DNA of 64,000 bases, taken from positions 32,001-96,000 of the forward strand of contig JAEOSU010000070.1 of NCBI GenBank assembly GCA_016840165.1. Direction: 5' to 3'. Of this stretch, positions 50,379-54,358 are shown in pieces. The stretch comes from Promethearchaeota archaeon (GTDB lineage Archaea; Asgardarchaeota; Lokiarchaeia; Sigyniarchaeales; SOKP01). Below the pieces are notes generated by a model. It worked only from the letters and a program-made list of their open reading frames with translations. It had not been told where the DNA came from and did no database searches. The translations under genes were made by a program, and so were the position numbers. Each line of letters begins with the position of its first letter. The stretch's first letter is position 1.

Positions 50379-52295
50379 ATGTTTACACAAAAACCCCCTT
50401 CTCGCCAGATTCCCGGAATTCTCTCGTATATGGAATATTTTTCTTCCAAAAAGGCAGCATTTTCGATTTATTTTAGTATAATTGGGATCATCGGGTTTCT
50501 ATCCTTTATTTTTAATTCAATTTACAGTGATGTTTGGAATTTTATTTACCTACTTATAGTTATTGGTATGTTTCTCATAATTTCGGGTTCTGGTATGTTA
50601 ATTTCGATTTTTTATTATTCGAAACGTGCTCCAATACTTGCAGCTCCGCCTAAAGGATGGGCAGTTCAATTAAATGCATTTTTAACCGCAATAATAGGGA
50701 TTTCTTTGTTAATTGGACATGGTTTAGTGATATTCCTGAGAAATATAGCTTTCCAAGAAGTTTTCTTTATTTTGGGCACAATTGTTGCTTATATTATTGG
50801 TTTTGTAATCTATTATTCATTTACAACCGTAGGTAGTTATGGGAATCTAATTCTAGCATTAACCCAACCAGTAGTTGGGATTTTATTATATAGCATATTT
50901 ACAGCACAAATAAATTTCTTGTTCCTAATAAAAGCAATAATTTTCTTTTGCTCATGTGCTTTTATATTCGCTATCCCTTATGCCCATAGTATGTCTCGCG
51001 TAAGTAATATTTATCGCGAGGCGACAGGTATAGGAGGATATCCTTTTATTCGTGCCTTTATCTTGTCGATGATGACTGATGGAAATGACCAAATGATCGA
51101 AAGTTTTTTTGAACGAATAGGTATAGACGAGGAGATAAAAATTCAATACCTAGCAATTCGTAACAGTACCAGTAAGAAGATAAAGGGTTTATTAATAATT
51201 CCAAATATCCATTTTGGTCCATTCAAAACTTGTGGATCTTCGGATTTACCAGAACACATATATAAAAAATTCAGCAATATTACTGGGACAACTGTATACC
51301 ACACTACTAATGATCATACACAAAATTTAACTTCTCAAAAAGAAGTGGATAAAGTTCTCAATCAAATAATCAAGGATGTAGATAAAATTAAAAATAATGA
51401 TTCTCTTACGTGGACAAAACAGATTAGAAAGGTGACTAGGAAAATCTCAAATTCTGCAAAATTAATTGGAACTGTGGTTGATAATACAGCTATCATTTTC
51501 GTGACTCGACATCCTTTACCTTCCGATGATATTCAAGCAGCGATAGGGGAGAAAATTAGCCGAATCGCAACTGATTCTGGGTATGATGATATTGTTATTA
51601 TTGATTCACACAATTCGATCATTGGAGATGAAATTTTAATCAAACCAAAATCATATGAAGCACAGGATATAATCAGCGTTTCAGAAAAATTTTTGCGATC
51701 TATAAAAAAGGAAAGGAATAACGGACAGGAAGTAAATAAAGTTCAATATGGTGTGGCAAGAGATCCTTTAAATCAATATAATGAAAAAGATGGTATTGGA
51801 TATGGAGGATTAGTAGTTCACATGTTTAAGGATACCATTTCAAACCAAAAAACAGCATTTATCCATTTTGATGCAAATAATGCCTATGCAGATATTAGAT
51901 CATATATCCTTAATATGCTACAAAATAGAGGAATTGAAAGAGGTGAGGTCACTACCTCCGATTCGCATACCGTTGCAAGAAAGTTTACTCGAAGAGCTTA
52001 TTCCCCGATAGGAGAAAAAATTAAACTCCAAACCATTTTAGAGAAGTTAGATTCATTAATTTCCGAAGCAAACCAAGATCTAGAGGAAGTAGAATTTTGT
52101 TATTATAAATCTTTTATACCTCATACTAAAATTTGGGGAGATCCTAAATATTTTGATGTGATTATGAATACTCTTCAAGAATGCATTAGAATTTCACAAA
52201 GATTATTAACTCTTAGCTTAATATTGCCTACATTCTTTTCATTAATCTTACTTTTATTCTTCTATCAAATTACGGATATTTTTAATTTATTCTAA
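50379..52295 (+). CDS. DUF2070-family membrane protein
   Basis: N-terminal TMs; PNIHFGPF, GSSDLP, HTTNDH..NL, IDSHN, DANN, TTSDSH. Confidence 0.85.
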   Translation: MFTQKPPSRQIPGILSYMEYFSSKKAAFSIYFSIIGIIGFLSFIFNSIYSDVWNFIYLLIVIGMFLIISGSGMLISIFYYSKRAPILAAPPKGWAVQLNAFLTAIIGISLLIGHGLVIFLRNIAFQEVFFILGTIVAYIIGFVIYYSFTTVGSYGNLILALTQPVVGILLYSIFTAQINFLFLIKAIIFFCSCAFIFAIPYAHSMSRVSNIYREATGIGGYPFIRAFILSMMTDGNDQMIESFFERIGIDEEIKIQYLAIRNSTSKKIKGLLIIPNIHFGPFKTCGSSDLPEHIYKKFSNITGTTVYHTTNDHTQNLTSQKEVDKVLNQIIKDVDKIKNNDSLTWTKQIRKVTRKISNSAKLIGTVVDNTAIIFVTRHPLPSDDIQAAIGEKISRIATDSGYDDIVIIDSHNSIIGDEILIKPKSYEAQDIISVSEKFLRSIKKERNNGQEVNKVQYGVARDPLNQYNEKDGIGYGGLVVHMFKDTISNQKTAFIHFDANNAYADIRSYILNMLQNRGIERGEVTTSDSHTVARKFTRRAYSPIGEKIKLQTILEKLDSLISEANQDLEEVEFCYYKSFIPHTKIWGDPKYFDVIMNTLQECIRISQRLLTLSLILPTFFSLILLLFFYQITDIFNLF

Positions 52296-52408
52296 AAAGT
52301 ATGATATCCAATTAATAATAATACCATGATATTATGCGGATATCATGCAGATTCATATAAAGAATTAGCTCTTTTTGTGTTAATAAATTCTTTTCAATTG
52401 AATATTGT

Positions 52409-52945
52409 ATGTTAAGTACTGAATTGAATAAATTAGTAAAAGTCTCATTTTTAGGAGCCCCCGCAGTCGGTAAAACAACAATGTTAAAGTTATTAGCCAA
52501 AAATACTATTGATCGTATCTATATGCCTACACATGGATTTGATTTGAAAACTGTTCAGATAGAAAGTTTTACTCTCAAAGTATGGGATTTAGCAGGTCAA
52601 AGGAATTATTTAAAAATGTATAGTAAAGATCATCTATTAGGATCGGATATTATTATTGTAGTCACTGACTCGACTCCGCGTAATGTTTTGAGCTCACGAG
52701 AATTAATCAATTATGCTACTCACTTCGTTGGGAAGGATTGTCCGATAATTGCCATCGCGAATAAACAGGATTTGAAATCTGTCGATGGAAGGATGAATCC
52801 CAAAAGAGTAGGAGAAATTCTCAGGGTAGAAACGTATGGCCTTACAGCAATTAATCCTGAAGAGCGTATGGTTCTTATAAATATTATTAGAAAAGAATTA
52901 GAACGAGTAGCAATTAAAAGAGGTATGCGTGAAGATGAATTTTAA
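52409..52945 (+). CDS. Small Arf/Ras-like GTPase
   Basis: G1 GAPAVGKT, G2 YMPTHG, G3 WDLAGQ, G4 NKQD, G5 LTA; no lipidation motif. Confidence 0.92.
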   Translation: MLSTELNKLVKVSFLGAPAVGKTTMLKLLAKNTIDRIYMPTHGFDLKTVQIESFTLKVWDLAGQRNYLKMYSKDHLLGSDIIIVVTDSTPRNVLSSRELINYATHFVGKDCPIIAIANKQDLKSVDGRMNPKRVGEILRVETYGLTAINPEERMVLINIIRKELERVAIKRGMREDEF

Positions 52946-53489
52946 TGAAAAAGAGCTTTTTGGAGCAGCTCTCATTGGTTTTGATATGATAGATGGCCCT
53001 TTTTTAAAATGGAAACGAGAATATGCGAAATCGGAAGATATGATGAATTTAGACGATTTTGCGATGAATTTTTATTTGGCATTCCGAGGAGGGAATGCAG
53101 GTAAGAAACCAAGGGCAATCTTATATGATAAATTCTATATCGTTGCTTTCCCTAAAGATCTAGAACTTTGCTGTCTTTTTATGAAGCCCCAAGGTATCGA
53201 AAACAATATTAAGCAACTCAATAAGATCGCTTTTAGAATTATTAATGAAATGGAGGTTGATGAGGAGCATGAAGAGGGACCAGATCAATCTGATGAAGAT
53301 ACAATGGAAGAAGTAAAACGACTGGTTGTGAACTTACTAAATGGTACTGAAATGTCCACTCCGGAATTAAGACGTTATTTTAAGTTAACAAACGCAGAAA
53401 TATGGAAAGTAATGTCAGATCTTGAAAACGATAATAAAATTAAGCGTACAAGGAAAAAAGGAAGAGCTATACTCTGGACAAGCTGTTAA
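52929..53489 (+). CDS. Longin/uDENN-like domain, acidic linker, C-terminal winged helix
   Basis: LFGAALIGFDMIDGPFLKW hairpin; EEHEEGPDQSDED linker; MSTPELRRYFKLTNAEIWKVMSDLENDNKIKR; overlaps the GTPase stop (alternative ATG at 52935). Confidence 0.68.
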   Translation: MKMNFNEKELFGAALIGFDMIDGPFLKWKREYAKSEDMMNLDDFAMNFYLAFRGGNAGKKPRAILYDKFYIVAFPKDLELCCLFMKPQGIENNIKQLNKIAFRIINEMEVDEEHEEGPDQSDEDTMEEVKRLVVNLLNGTEMSTPELRRYFKLTNAEIWKVMSDLENDNKIKRTRKKGRAILWTSC

Positions 53490-53545
53490 AAACTTAATTT
53501 TTTCTTTCATTTTAACTTTTTTAAATTGAAAGATAAGAGATTAAA

Positions 53546-54358
53546 TCATCTAGTTCTGTGTTCCCAACCTTTTTGTTTTGTGAACATTCGGGAAAACATG
53601 ATATGACATATATCGGGAAGTGCTTTATCTTCATTATTTATGGTAATGTAACGAAGTATATGATTGATGATAAATATACCAATCAATTCAGCATGATAAC
53701 TACCCATATTAGTAAGTTTTTTTCCTGAGAAGATGATATCCAACCCATCATTTTCAGTCCAGATAATTTCGGCAAACATTTGAGGAAAAAATTCTTTTTT
53801 TATTCTCCAACCATTTTCAGTCTTCCATATCTTTGCTCCAATGAATTCAGATAATTCATCTTTATCTTCATTCTTTAAGTATGTAAATGGTTTAGAACGC
53901 TGTGTTAATACTTTTTCCATTAGCTCAGTTTTCTTACTATAATCTCTTTCGAAGGGTTCTTTATCTTTTAATAACCTTTCGATGAAATCCATAACGATAT
54001 CTATATATGTGGCAGTATCTTCACCGGGAACCCAGTATGAACGATCTCCCGAGAAGAAAAACTTAATTTCAGCCTCAATATCATCCCCAAATTCATCTCC
54101 AAAATAATTGTAGGTAATGTGGATCATAACATCTGGAAATAGCTCAATACTTATTGTCCAATCGTCATCCATTCCTAGATCTTGAAATTTTGCTCCCAAT
54201 TCGTTAATAATAATTTTTTCAAATATATTTGGATCAAGATTGATAAAGAGGGGATATTTATTCTTACTAATATTTTCTAATTCAACCTCATGGGGTCCTC
54301 GTACGCCCGTTGCGTCGATTTGACCTACAGTCCACAATTTAATGTTATTTTTGGCCAT
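53546..54358 (-). CDS. Hypothetical protein with two DUF3786-like repeats
   Basis: LGAK...W.I...LFP.....I....FFSG repeated as IGAK...W.I...FFP.....I....IFSG. Confidence 0.6.
   Translation of the reverse strand: MAKNNIKLWTVGQIDATGVRGPHEVELENISKNKYPLFINLDPNIFEKIIINELGAKFQDLGMDDDWTISIELFPDVMIHITYNYFGDEFGDDIEAEIKFFFSGDRSYWVPGEDTATYIDIVMDFIERLLKDKEPFERDYSKKTELMEKVLTQRSKPFTYLKNEDKDELSEFIGAKIWKTENGWRIKKEFFPQMFAEIIWTENDGLDIIFSGKKLTNMGSYHAELIGIFIINHILRYITINNEDKALPDICHIMFSRMFTKQKGWEHRTR

Follow-up and report, generated by a model that had tools for sequence, protein, structure and literature searches.

A small GTPase gene and the gene directly downstream of it form a two-gene, translationally coupled operon typical of Lokiarchaeia-type Asgard archaea, described here from a window of 64,000 nucleotides of a Promethearchaeota archaeon (contig JAEOSU010000070.1). 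The downstream gene encodes a partner protein with an N-terminal domain of predicted longin/roadblock fold and a C-terminal winged helix-turn-helix (wHTH). On the reading favoured here, which is about as likely as not, the partner binds the GTPase through its N-terminal domain and DNA through its wHTH, the pair acting as a division-linked transcription switch.

The first gene (52409..52945, plus strand; stop codon TAA at 52943-52945) encodes a 178 amino acid protein whose G1 to G5 motifs are intact in the family alignment. These are GAPAVGKT (residues 16-23), T41, DLAGQ (60-64, including the catalytic Gln64), NKQD (118-121) and TAI (146-148). The protein matches the Pfam Arf model with an E-value of 1.3e-19 (70.7 bits, cut-off 22.3); the Roc and Ras models likewise exceed their cut-offs, and TIGR00231 (small_GTP) also matches. 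Its nearest relatives in the PDB are Arl3 (6.6e-17), Arl2 and Arf, and its interswitch has the length of that of Arl3. Judged by motifs and model matches, the product is a Ras-superfamily small GTPase of Arf-family-like character. An N-terminal extension of 10 residues (MLSTELNKLV) is shorter than that of Arf and is missing in orthologues at 36-46% identity. The Asgard ArfR GTPases (bioRxiv 10.1101/2024.02.28.582541, PMC11914678) resemble it in Arf-family-like sequence, in WDxxGQ and in an Arl3-length interswitch, whereas the GTPase of the window has only its 10-residue extension, and the likeness to ArfR rests on best matches. Gene neighbours of ArfR GTPases are not a topic of those two papers.

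The partner gene (52935..53489, plus strand) is present once in the genome and encodes 184 amino acids from an ATG at 52935, or 186 from an alternative GTG at 52929. The initial annotation had described a GTPase stop codon overlapped by the start of a 186 amino acid reading frame, and the frames are as it described them, with the GTG as start. The ATG is the more likely start because a length of 184 amino acids and an initial MNF are found in most of the 515 homologues. The overlap of the two genes is 11 nt with the ATG and 17 nt with the GTG, and a Shine-Dalgarno-like box (GAGGT, 52920-52924) lies ahead of the partner start. A T-rich tract (T6, T4, T6) at 53498..53522 on the plus strand, 3' of the partner stop, reads as a possible archaeal terminator. 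No Pfam model covers the partner family, and its N-terminal domain has no Pfam or NCBIfam match. A language-model atlas returned sub-threshold leads only for the partner, the nearest cluster scoring 0.77, below the reliable range, with NPR2 on 19% of its members.

The partner family is seen in Asgard archaea only, as a single-copy gene, and is near-universal in its own class: it was found in 122 of 134 genomes of its own family, in 17 of 19 from the rest of the order and in all seven from the rest of the class. Orthologues are also encoded by the cultured Lokiarchaea MK-D1 and L. ossiferum. The same GTPase lies directly upstream on the same strand in 45 of 45 informative loci, that is, loci with enough flank, drawn from families f1, f3, f5, f6, f7, f28 and f29 as well as from metagenome contigs whose identity is 30-48%. 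In these loci the two genes overlap or are at most 13 nt apart. Both genes are kept at 65-90% identity across hundreds of contigs and are adjacent in every informative locus, so conservation of the pair is far beyond chance. The outer neighbours vary between loci, and the pair persists across several Asgard classes despite these changing flanks, as the initial annotation had proposed to check by synteny. An upstream co-oriented gene for a DUF2070 membrane protein was considered as a further member of the module and rejected, because just 12 of 46 loci have it as a neighbour and because the candidate operator and TATA-box-like element described below lie between it and the GTPase gene.

Comparison of the variant architectures identifies the N-terminal domain as the constant part of the partner. 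Partners in f10 consist of this domain alone, still encoded 3' of the GTPase, and in both f10 and f11 a separate, divergent gene for a PF0610-like wHTH/Zn-ribbon protein adjoins the N-domain gene, which is a fission/fusion pattern. In f28 and f29 the partner ends in a different, non-wHTH C-terminus. This C-terminus appears HhH-like by eye (IxGLGxKRxxxI); it has no Pfam match, and the AlphaFold2 model of the partner P0144 is weak there (pLDDT 30-70). The family thus carries a wHTH, a helical HhH-like domain or a poly-Arg tail as its C-terminal module. Weak matches of the family alignment in f13 and f16 (E about 1e-4) cover the wHTH only and fall in unrelated proteins.

AlphaFold2 predicts a bbabbba topology for residues 1-113 of the partner (52935..53273), with strands at 8-17, 21-29, 60-63, 68-74 and 77-83 and helices at 39-51 and 92-113. 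Structural matches include the TRAPP longin 7u05_D (Z 10.1), synbindin 2zmv_B (Z 10.0), the Loki longin 8yqg (Z 9.8), MglB (Z 9.8 over 104 residues), the GATOR1 chain 7t3b_C (Z 9.4 over 98 residues) and 5ldd_D (Z 8.7), and Foldseek matches the domain to LAMTOR with an E-value of 4.5e-4. Just seven residues precede beta1, hence there is no N-terminal helix of the kind found in roadblock/LC7 domains of the MglB type. The absence of this helix is longin-like, and TRAPP longins match at Z 9.5-10.1, but the last longin helix, alpha3, is missing. By predicted fold, the domain belongs to the longin/roadblock superfamily with a longin-like topology, which agrees with the longin domain proposed at the outset. 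The hhhxFDxxxGP hairpin noted at the same time is present as LIGFDMIDGP. F16, D17, G21, P22, Y47, F50, G53, P59 and F67 are invariant in the family; G21 and P22, invariant in 19-20 sequences, stand at the start of beta2. The invariant residues cluster in the beta1-beta2 hairpin (FDxxxGP) and in the alpha1-beta3 loop (GG...[KR]P), where a basic residue before P59 (K58 here) is conserved, R60 and K58 as such only partly. The sheet topology of the model suggests that hairpin and loop lie together at one end of the domain.

An acidic linker, also named in the initial annotation, spans residues 105-127 (53247..53315) and contains 13 D/E and no K/R (pI 4.05). It is predicted to be disordered (pLDDT below 50 at residues 111-119) and differs in length and sequence among homologues. 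The C-terminal 57 residues of the partner are basic, with a pI of 10.2. Residues 121-184 (53295..53486; pLDDT 84-95) are modelled by AlphaFold2 as three helices (121-135, 142-149 and 153-165) and a beta hairpin (169-175 and 178-183), with a basic wing, KRTRKKGR. The closest structural matches of this domain are the ArsR-like PH1932 (2cwe, Z 10.6), NolR-DNA (Z 10.4) and Zalpha (Z 10.4). HTH_11 matches 10 of 19 family members (best 7.3e-08), HTH_5 is matched at 1.1e-07 and DeoR at 1.3e-07; the wHTH of the window itself stays under the Pfam cut-off (HTH_11, E 0.09), and a PDB profile search reached AdcR at 7e-4. The recognition helix of the wHTH is conserved. The modelled fold and these matches bear out the earlier call of a C-terminal wHTH and indicate a winged helix of the ArsR/HTH_11 type, the ordinary prokaryotic transcription-factor kind. 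Winged helices can also act as protein-binding modules; here, the basic wing, the pI of 10.2 and a conserved palindrome in the partner's own promoter point indirectly to DNA binding.

This palindrome was recognized in aligned orthologous promoters as a candidate operator at 52318..52346. It consists of three ATAWTAT-type half-sites with a spacing of 11 bp (ATAATAC at 52318-24, ATATTAT at 52329-35 and ATATCAT at 52340-46), and orthologous loci carry ATAATAT-N4-ATATTAT at this position. The element TTCATATAAA (52352..52361, plus strand) follows the operator after five nucleotides and precedes the start codon of the GTPase by about 48 nt; by eye it is probably an archaeal TATA box, and about 20 orthologous loci share the block GATTCATAT almost unchanged at equal offset. 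Scored with a matrix from 16 other sites, held-out distant loci gave operator p values of 0.0003-0.009. When the 3273 upstream regions of the genome were ranked with a matrix built from other genomes, the operon came 2nd, ftsZ2 10th and ftsZ1 12th. As judged from these alignments and scores, different classes have kept a palindrome next to the putative TATA box, which is described here as new. It lies in the very promoter singled out in the initial annotation (52296-52408) and lends indirect support to the GTPase-controlled transcription factor suggested there. The operator element is AT-rich, as is the genome (31.6% GC). Tallied by spacer length over the whole genome, palindromes with the 4-nt spacing were not enriched; the claim of a regulon therefore draws on the ranks and on conservation between genomes rather than on the number of copies.

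By chance, the two ftsZ genes would both rank among the first 12 of 3273 upstream regions with a probability of about 1e-5. Across this genome and G216, G135, G124, G126 and G307, eight of nine ftsZ promoters scored at p 0.003-0.07, and the ninth at p 0.82. In all 13 genera compared, the xerA orthologue is preceded by the element at -54 to -59, with p<0.02 in 11 genera; just 8% of nearby control promoters score 10 or more. The element is also found upstream of a few genes of uncharacterised product and in the promoters of other wHTH genes, namely those for a 122 amino acid protein, a 255 amino acid roadblock-like-wHTH protein and PadR. Full-length orthologues of the 122 and 255 amino acid candidates were not found in f5-f7, whereas the partner family spans f5-f7. 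G016, a genome without the partner family, has a motif-like site before ftsZ. The actin gene, 8th in the ranking of this genome, was tried as a regulon member and rejected, its site not being conserved in G216, G135 and G126 (p 0.35-0.98).

Together, these results suggest a mechanism in which the partner's N-terminal domain would serve as a GTPase-binding platform, probably dimeric like the platforms of MglB, TRAPP and the longin GAP complexes. The dimeric partner would occupy the 11-bp-spaced palindrome beside the TATA box of its own promoter through its ArsR/PF0610-like winged helix, and the same element ahead of ftsZ1, ftsZ2, xerA and a few genes of uncharacterised product would extend its reach. 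The nucleotide state of the GTPase would alter DNA binding by the partner, with transcription of a division-linked regulon as the output. We infer binding between GTPase and partner, dimerisation, DNA binding, recognition of the operator by this particular wHTH and the direction in which it regulates. Several observations speak against the model: the element stands before other wHTH genes too, f28 keeps an operator-like site although its partner has no wHTH, G016 has a site before ftsZ but no partner family, the element is AT-rich with no genome-wide enrichment of its spacing, and the wHTH of the window scores under the Pfam cut-off. The most specific form of this proposal, that an Arf-like GTPase gates a longin-wHTH factor and that GTP and GDP switch its palindrome binding at the operon, both ftsZ genes, xerA and a few other genes, is tentative.

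A competing explanation, possible though somewhat doubtful, is that the partner is merely a regulator of the MglB/TRAPP kind, a GAP or GEF platform, whose wHTH serves as a protein-interaction domain or a non-specific nucleoid tether, while the operon falls under the division-linked regulon of another factor. Its N-terminal domain fits MglB as well as it fits LAMTOR and the TRAPP longins (Z 9.1-10.1), and operons of a small GTPase with a roadblock protein are common in prokaryotes (PMC4316618, PMC13621833). The interchangeable C-termini of the family would suit general polyanion binding, the f28 operon retains an operator-like site (p 0.004) though its partner has no wHTH, and the element also occurs at the other wHTH genes. 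Against this, the partner's wHTH is of the DNA-reading ArsR/DeoR/HTH_11 type, with its conserved recognition helix and basic wing; the best and most widely kept copy of the operator stands before the operon itself, a common arrangement for factors that control their own genes; and the other candidate factors are narrower in range.

The initial annotation had compared the pair to an NPRL2/GATOR1-like layout. The GP hairpin, the longin-like fold and the wHTH of that comparison stand, whereas profile membership does not, and the C-terminus is not that of NPRL2. The GP motif at the beta1-beta2 hairpin has been called diagnostic of GAP longins (Traffic 2025, PMC12290439), and G21/P22 of the partner occupy the position given there for FLCN, NPRL2 and SMCR8. 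The loop that would carry the arginine finger is short and Arg-free in the partner, as had been noted: its beta4-beta5 turn reads P73-K74-D75, compared with DEKARGGER in Asgard folliculin-like longins, and position 74 varies (K/R/N/S/H/D/E/V) in the family. Asgard longins found with the Folliculin model carry D-x-x-A-R-G at this turn. Pfam NPR2 (PF06218), searched at E<=1, matches nothing in the genome, PF20364 (DUF6659) likewise matches nothing there, and the Folliculin model (PF11704) detects other Asgard longins but not the partner locus. In an hhalign comparison with 11 Asgard Folliculin-model longins the alignment was confined to the hairpin, with a probability of 5.8% (P 0.0066). Since the Pfam models miss the partner, hhalign recovers the hairpin only and the C-terminus is an ordinary wHTH, the NPRL2/GATOR1-like layout holds as an analogy only.

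That the partner is a true arginine-finger GAP longin of the FLCN/NPRL2/SMCR8 kind, with GAP activity towards the Arf-like GTPase, is accordingly improbable. The invariant GP at the hairpin, the GATOR1 match and the NPR2 label in the nearest language-model cluster speak for it, and C9orf72-SMCR8 targets Arf1. The lack of a conserved Arg in the beta4-beta5 turn and of any NPR2 or Folliculin match argues against it, as do the absence of a DENN or NPRL2 C-terminal domain and of a second longin gene in the operon. Still more improbable is that the N-terminal domain is the small-molecule sensor of a one-component factor, like GAF in CodY, with the GTPase adjacent for non-binding reasons: Foldseek aligns the whole model with CodY (GAF + wHTH; 198 columns, E 1.9e-3) and a sensor domain with a wHTH is the commonest layout of prokaryotic regulators, but pairing with one GTPase lineage is strict even in forms without the wHTH, and all well-matching fold relatives are GTPase platforms.

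The proposed GTPase/longin-wHTH module differs from each known system that it resembles. MglA/MglB and the prokaryotic GTPase-Roadblock/LC7 operons, including the actinobacterial conservon (AGPS, Cvn/Mfp), likewise place a Ras-superfamily GTPase beside a small alpha/beta platform, and dimeric platforms serve as GAPs in MglA/MglB-type systems (PMC4316618, PMC13621833, PMC9481161). In contrast to MglA/MglB, the GTPase of the window is Arf/Arl-like with a catalytic Gln, not MglA-like, and the platform is without the N-terminal roadblock helix; the operon includes neither a histidine kinase gene nor one for a DUF742 GEF, and fusion to a DNA-binding-type wHTH is seen in none of these systems. FLCN-FNIP, NPRL2-NPRL3, C9orf72-SMCR8 and the Asgard folliculin-like longins (PMC12290439; Liu et al. 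bioRxiv 10.1101/2020.10.19.343400) share a longin-type fold, GP at the first hairpin and a GTPase of the Arf/Rag kind, but the partner has no arginine-finger loop, no Folliculin/NPR2 signal, no DENN/NPRL2 C-terminus and no sign of a heterodimeric second longin. The TRAPP core longins (Bet5/Trs23/synbindin, Tca17/sedlin) and Mon1-Ccz1, GEF platforms for Rab GTPases, supply the best structural matches of the N-terminal domain, with no sequence similarity detected. They are subunits of large GEFs and have a third helix, whereas in the partner a domain of 113 residues is joined to a wHTH. One-component wHTH regulators (CodY; ArsR/PF0610-like archaeal factors) also connect an alpha/beta input domain through a linker to a C-terminal wHTH and use a palindrome by the core promoter, but the input of the partner is a GTPase-platform fold with its own GTPase instead of a small-ligand pocket.

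Asgard genomes encode dozens of small GTPases and longin/roadblock proteins, and to our knowledge almost none has been matched to a partner or an output. In MK-D1, GTPase genes as a rule do not share operons with genes for roadblock or longin proteins (PMC10933270). The module described here offers a one-to-one, strictly conserved GTPase-longin pair with an assayable output domain, the wHTH, and a defined candidate DNA target common to ftsZ1, ftsZ2 and xerA. It makes several questions testable at the bench, namely whether the role of Asgard longins is that of a GAP, a GEF or an effector, whether the GP hairpin is of importance where an arginine finger is missing, and whether an Arf-like GTPase feeds into the control of cell-division genes; the materials would be a pair of small soluble proteins and a DNA of 50 bp. 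If the proposed reading is true, the module would provide a native partner and output for an Asgard Arf-like GTPase, which is not yet known, and would constitute a GTPase-driven cell-division regulon in archaeal relatives of eukaryotes.

The first gene of the module (52409-52945, forward strand) encodes a small GTPase of 178 aa in which the five G motifs are all present. A Pfam search matched it to Arf (1.3e-19), with Roc and Ras likewise exceeding their cut-offs, and TIGR00231 also matched. Its nearest solved structures are Arl3 (6.6e-17), Arl2, and Arf1/6, and the interswitch aligns without gaps. The second gene, on the same strand, encodes the partner and starts at ATG 52935 or GTG 52929, behind a GAGGT box at 52920-24; depending on the start, it overlaps the GTPase gene, whose TAA stop lies at 52943-45, by 11-17 nt. 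ATG 52935 appears the more likely start because most homologues are 184 aa long and begin with MNF. In the partner, an FDMIDGP hairpin is followed by an acidic linker and then by a C-terminus that is basic. The ORFs and motifs read from the window agree with the initial annotation, which described a GTPase overlapped by a partner with an FDxxxGP hairpin, an acidic linker, and a C-terminal wHTH.

In 45/45 loci whose contig extends far enough, the gene immediately before the partner is an Arf-like GTPase in the same orientation; the two overlap or are no more than 13 nt apart. This pairing is kept where the partner is only 30-48% identical and the outer neighbours are unrelated, and the two proteins very probably form a dedicated functional pair. 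A DUF2070 polytopic membrane protein is encoded in the same orientation 113 nt upstream of the GTPase (50379-52295, forward strand). It adjoins the operon in only 12/46 loci, and the operator and TATA box stand between it and the GTPase, so it probably does not belong to the module. A convergent 270-aa gene (53546-54358, reverse strand) belongs to no Pfam family; within the window's own taxonomic family it adjoins the operon at each of 31 loci, and it is absent as a neighbour in more distant lineages.

No Pfam or NCBIfam model matches the N-terminal two thirds of the partner. A word-index search returned 515 homologues, nearly all of 182-187 aa and 73-99% identical, and every one with a named source organism carries an Asgard MAG label. 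Searching 1.8 billion cluster representatives exhaustively with HMMER matched only 28 clusters; therefore, the family is narrow. Nine positions are invariant in the family alignment (F16, D17, G21, P22, Y47, F50, G53, P59, and F67). The AlphaFold2 model (mean pLDDT 78) contains strands 8-17 and 21-29, helix 39-51, strands 60-63, 68-74, and 77-83, and helix 92-113, followed by a disordered acidic stretch. The N-domain lacks an N-terminal helix, which makes its topology longin-like; the last longin helix, however, is missing. Foldseek matched this domain to LAMTOR, MglB, and roadblock proteins (best 4.5e-4). VIA-align gave Z values of 10.0-10.1 for TRAPP longins, 9.8 for a Lokiarchaeal longin and for MglB, 9.5 for Tca17, 9.4 for the GATOR1 chain 7t3b_C, 9.1-9.4 for roadblocks, and 8.7 for Mon1-Ccz1. 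Because these values are tied, the safe statement is that the modelled N-domain belongs to the longin/roadblock superfamily. The C-domain (121-183) is modelled as three helices and a beta hairpin (pLDDT 84-95), and its structural matches are ArsR-like PH1932 (Z 10.6), NolR on DNA (10.4), and Zalpha (10.4). The best values among family members are 7.3e-08 for HTH_11, 1.1e-07 for HTH_5, and 1.3e-07 for DeoR, and the partner profile matched AdcR, Lrs14, and HlyU in the PDB.

Among 400 genomes searched from the phylum, the partner occurs in 122/134 genomes of the window's own taxonomic family, 17/19 of the order's remaining genomes, and 7/7 of those remaining in the class; outside the class it is patchy, and many lineages gave no match. 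The window's own genome (G000; 3.6 Mb, 99.7% complete) has one copy. Comparison of the C-terminal variants identifies the N-domain as the constant element of the module. In families f28 and f29, the partner has a different helical C-terminus, HhH-like by eye. In f10 and f11, the N-domain stands alone with a poly-Arg tail, and in f10 its gene is still downstream of the GTPase. Beside this wHTH-less partner, both families carry a divergent gene for a PF0610-like regulator with a wHTH and a Zn-ribbon (L040 in genome G005, 2430-2771; L039 in G006, 997-1320). Set against the fused form, this is a fission/fusion pattern linking the N-domain to a wHTH. Distant stand-alone N-domain homologues (f20, f21, and f32) have no adjoining GTPase. 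The chances are about even that the partner is a DNA-binding regulator with GTPase-dependent activity. It is rather unlikely to be a purely MglB-like regulator whose wHTH binds proteins or binds non-specifically.

The GAP longins FLCN, NPRL2, SMCR8, and C9orf72 are reported to be marked by a GP motif in their first hairpin, and some Asgard longins have both this motif and an arginine finger (Traffic 2025, PMC12290439). The partner's GP occupies the same hairpin position, and the NPRL2-like layout proposed initially holds only as an analogy. In contrast, the tight P-K-D of its beta4-beta5 turn has no conserved Arg in the alignment, as the initial reading of a short, Arg-free loop had it, whereas Asgard proteins detected by the Pfam Folliculin model have D-E-K-A-R-G-G-E-R there. 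Neither that model nor Pfam NPR2 matches the partner, and profile-profile comparison with the Asgard Folliculin-model longins aligned the hairpin alone (probability 5.8%, P 0.0066). For these reasons, membership in the FLCN/NPRL2 family was rejected, and an arginine-finger GAP of this type is highly improbable. The residue before invariant P59, in the alpha1-beta3 loop, is K/R in all aligned sequences but one. Judged from the sheet topology, this loop would lie at the same end of the N-domain as the GP hairpin, and we infer that the residue is a candidate functional one. A separate locus, L098 (G117:C1:639125-642370), has a tandem array of three genes detected by the Folliculin longin model. 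Two encode about 380-396 aa and the third 173 aa, and each product has an FDExxGP hairpin and an ARG loop; they are Asgard folliculin-like longins distinct from the partner family.

Many Asgard roadblock/longin families have been listed, together with NPRL2-like longins fused to prokaryotic signalling domains (Liu et al., bioRxiv 10.1101/2020.10.19.343400). MK-D1 GTPases are generally outside operons with roadblock/longin genes (Tran et al., PMC10933270), and the ArfR preprint (bioRxiv 10.1101/2024.02.28.582541) does not treat gene neighbours. A small GTPase with a platform protein is an already known kind of system. A literature search on Asgard longin-winged helix-GTPase found no paper describing this pair, nor, in the literature searched, the wHTH fusion, the strict Arf-like GTPase pairing, or the shared operator.

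Orthologous upstream regions were aligned by anchoring on the near-invariant TATA-like GATTCATAT, and a conserved palindrome, ATAATAT-N4-ATATTAT, ends 5 nt before it. The window has three half-sites 11 bp apart (52318-24, 52329-35, and 52340-46). A 19-nt matrix was built from 16 distinct sites from other genomes, leaving out G000. Held-out distant loci scored at p 0.0003-0.009, for example L003 (34% protein identity), f5, f6, and f28, and control promoters in the same loci reached a score of 10 in 7/83. The operon ranks 2 among 3273 upstream regions in G000.

In the same ranking, ftsZ2 (L057, C58:91332-92468) is 10th, ftsZ1 (L056, C49:15614-16720) 12th, and xerA (L075/L103, C36:21130-22053), a tyrosine recombinase (Pfam Phage_integrase 4e-41), 13th; by chance, the two ftsZ genes would both be among the first 12 with a probability of about 1e-5. 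All three promoters carry ATAWTAY-N4-RTATTAY 55-90 nt ahead of the start codon, with a TATA-like box shortly after the element. The ftsZ element is kept in most Lokiarchaeia tested. The ftsZ promoters score at p 0.008-0.047 in G216, G124, and G126 and 0.07 in G135, and the two in f28 (G307) at 0.03 and 0.82. The xerA element lies at -54 to -59 in 13/13 genera (p<0.02 in 11). Rank 1 belongs to a 115-aa gene of no family (L066, G000:C81:16864-17211), with the element at -53 to -68 in 8/8 genomes (p<0.02 in 5). Rank 5 is a 255-aa gene (L069, G000:C2:11820-12587; p<0.02 in 9/13) whose product matches TrmB only at E 0.19 and by eye has a roadblock-type N-domain and a C-terminal wHTH. Also placed high are L068, a 122-aa wHTH-like gene, and L071, a PadR gene. 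Lokiactin (L072, G000:C77:24266-25411; Pfam Actin 5.9e-133) ranks 8 but was rejected as a member, with p 0.35-0.98 in three other genomes.

Roadblock and longin domains dimerise, and the 11-bp-spaced palindrome fits a dimeric wHTH, which makes the partner's wHTH a candidate for the operator. The operon's copy of the element is among the best and the most widely conserved. Single-sequence queries with the 122-aa and 255-aa wHTH candidates turned up no full-length orthologues in f5-f7, and the partner family spans f5-f7; this wider range counts for the partner. However, f28 retains the operon site although its partner lacks a wHTH, and in G016, a genome that lacks the partner, ftsZ (L145, G016:C1:2128730-2132206) is preceded by a motif-like site (score 13.3) some 73 nt upstream of its first ATG, reflecting either chance or another factor reading the element. 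The element is also AT-rich, and its spacing counts across the genome are not distinctive. The odds that the partner, as a putative DNA-binding regulator, is the factor of the ftsZ/xerA palindrome are below even. The ftsZ1, ftsZ2, and xerA promoters look like a division/segregation regulon.
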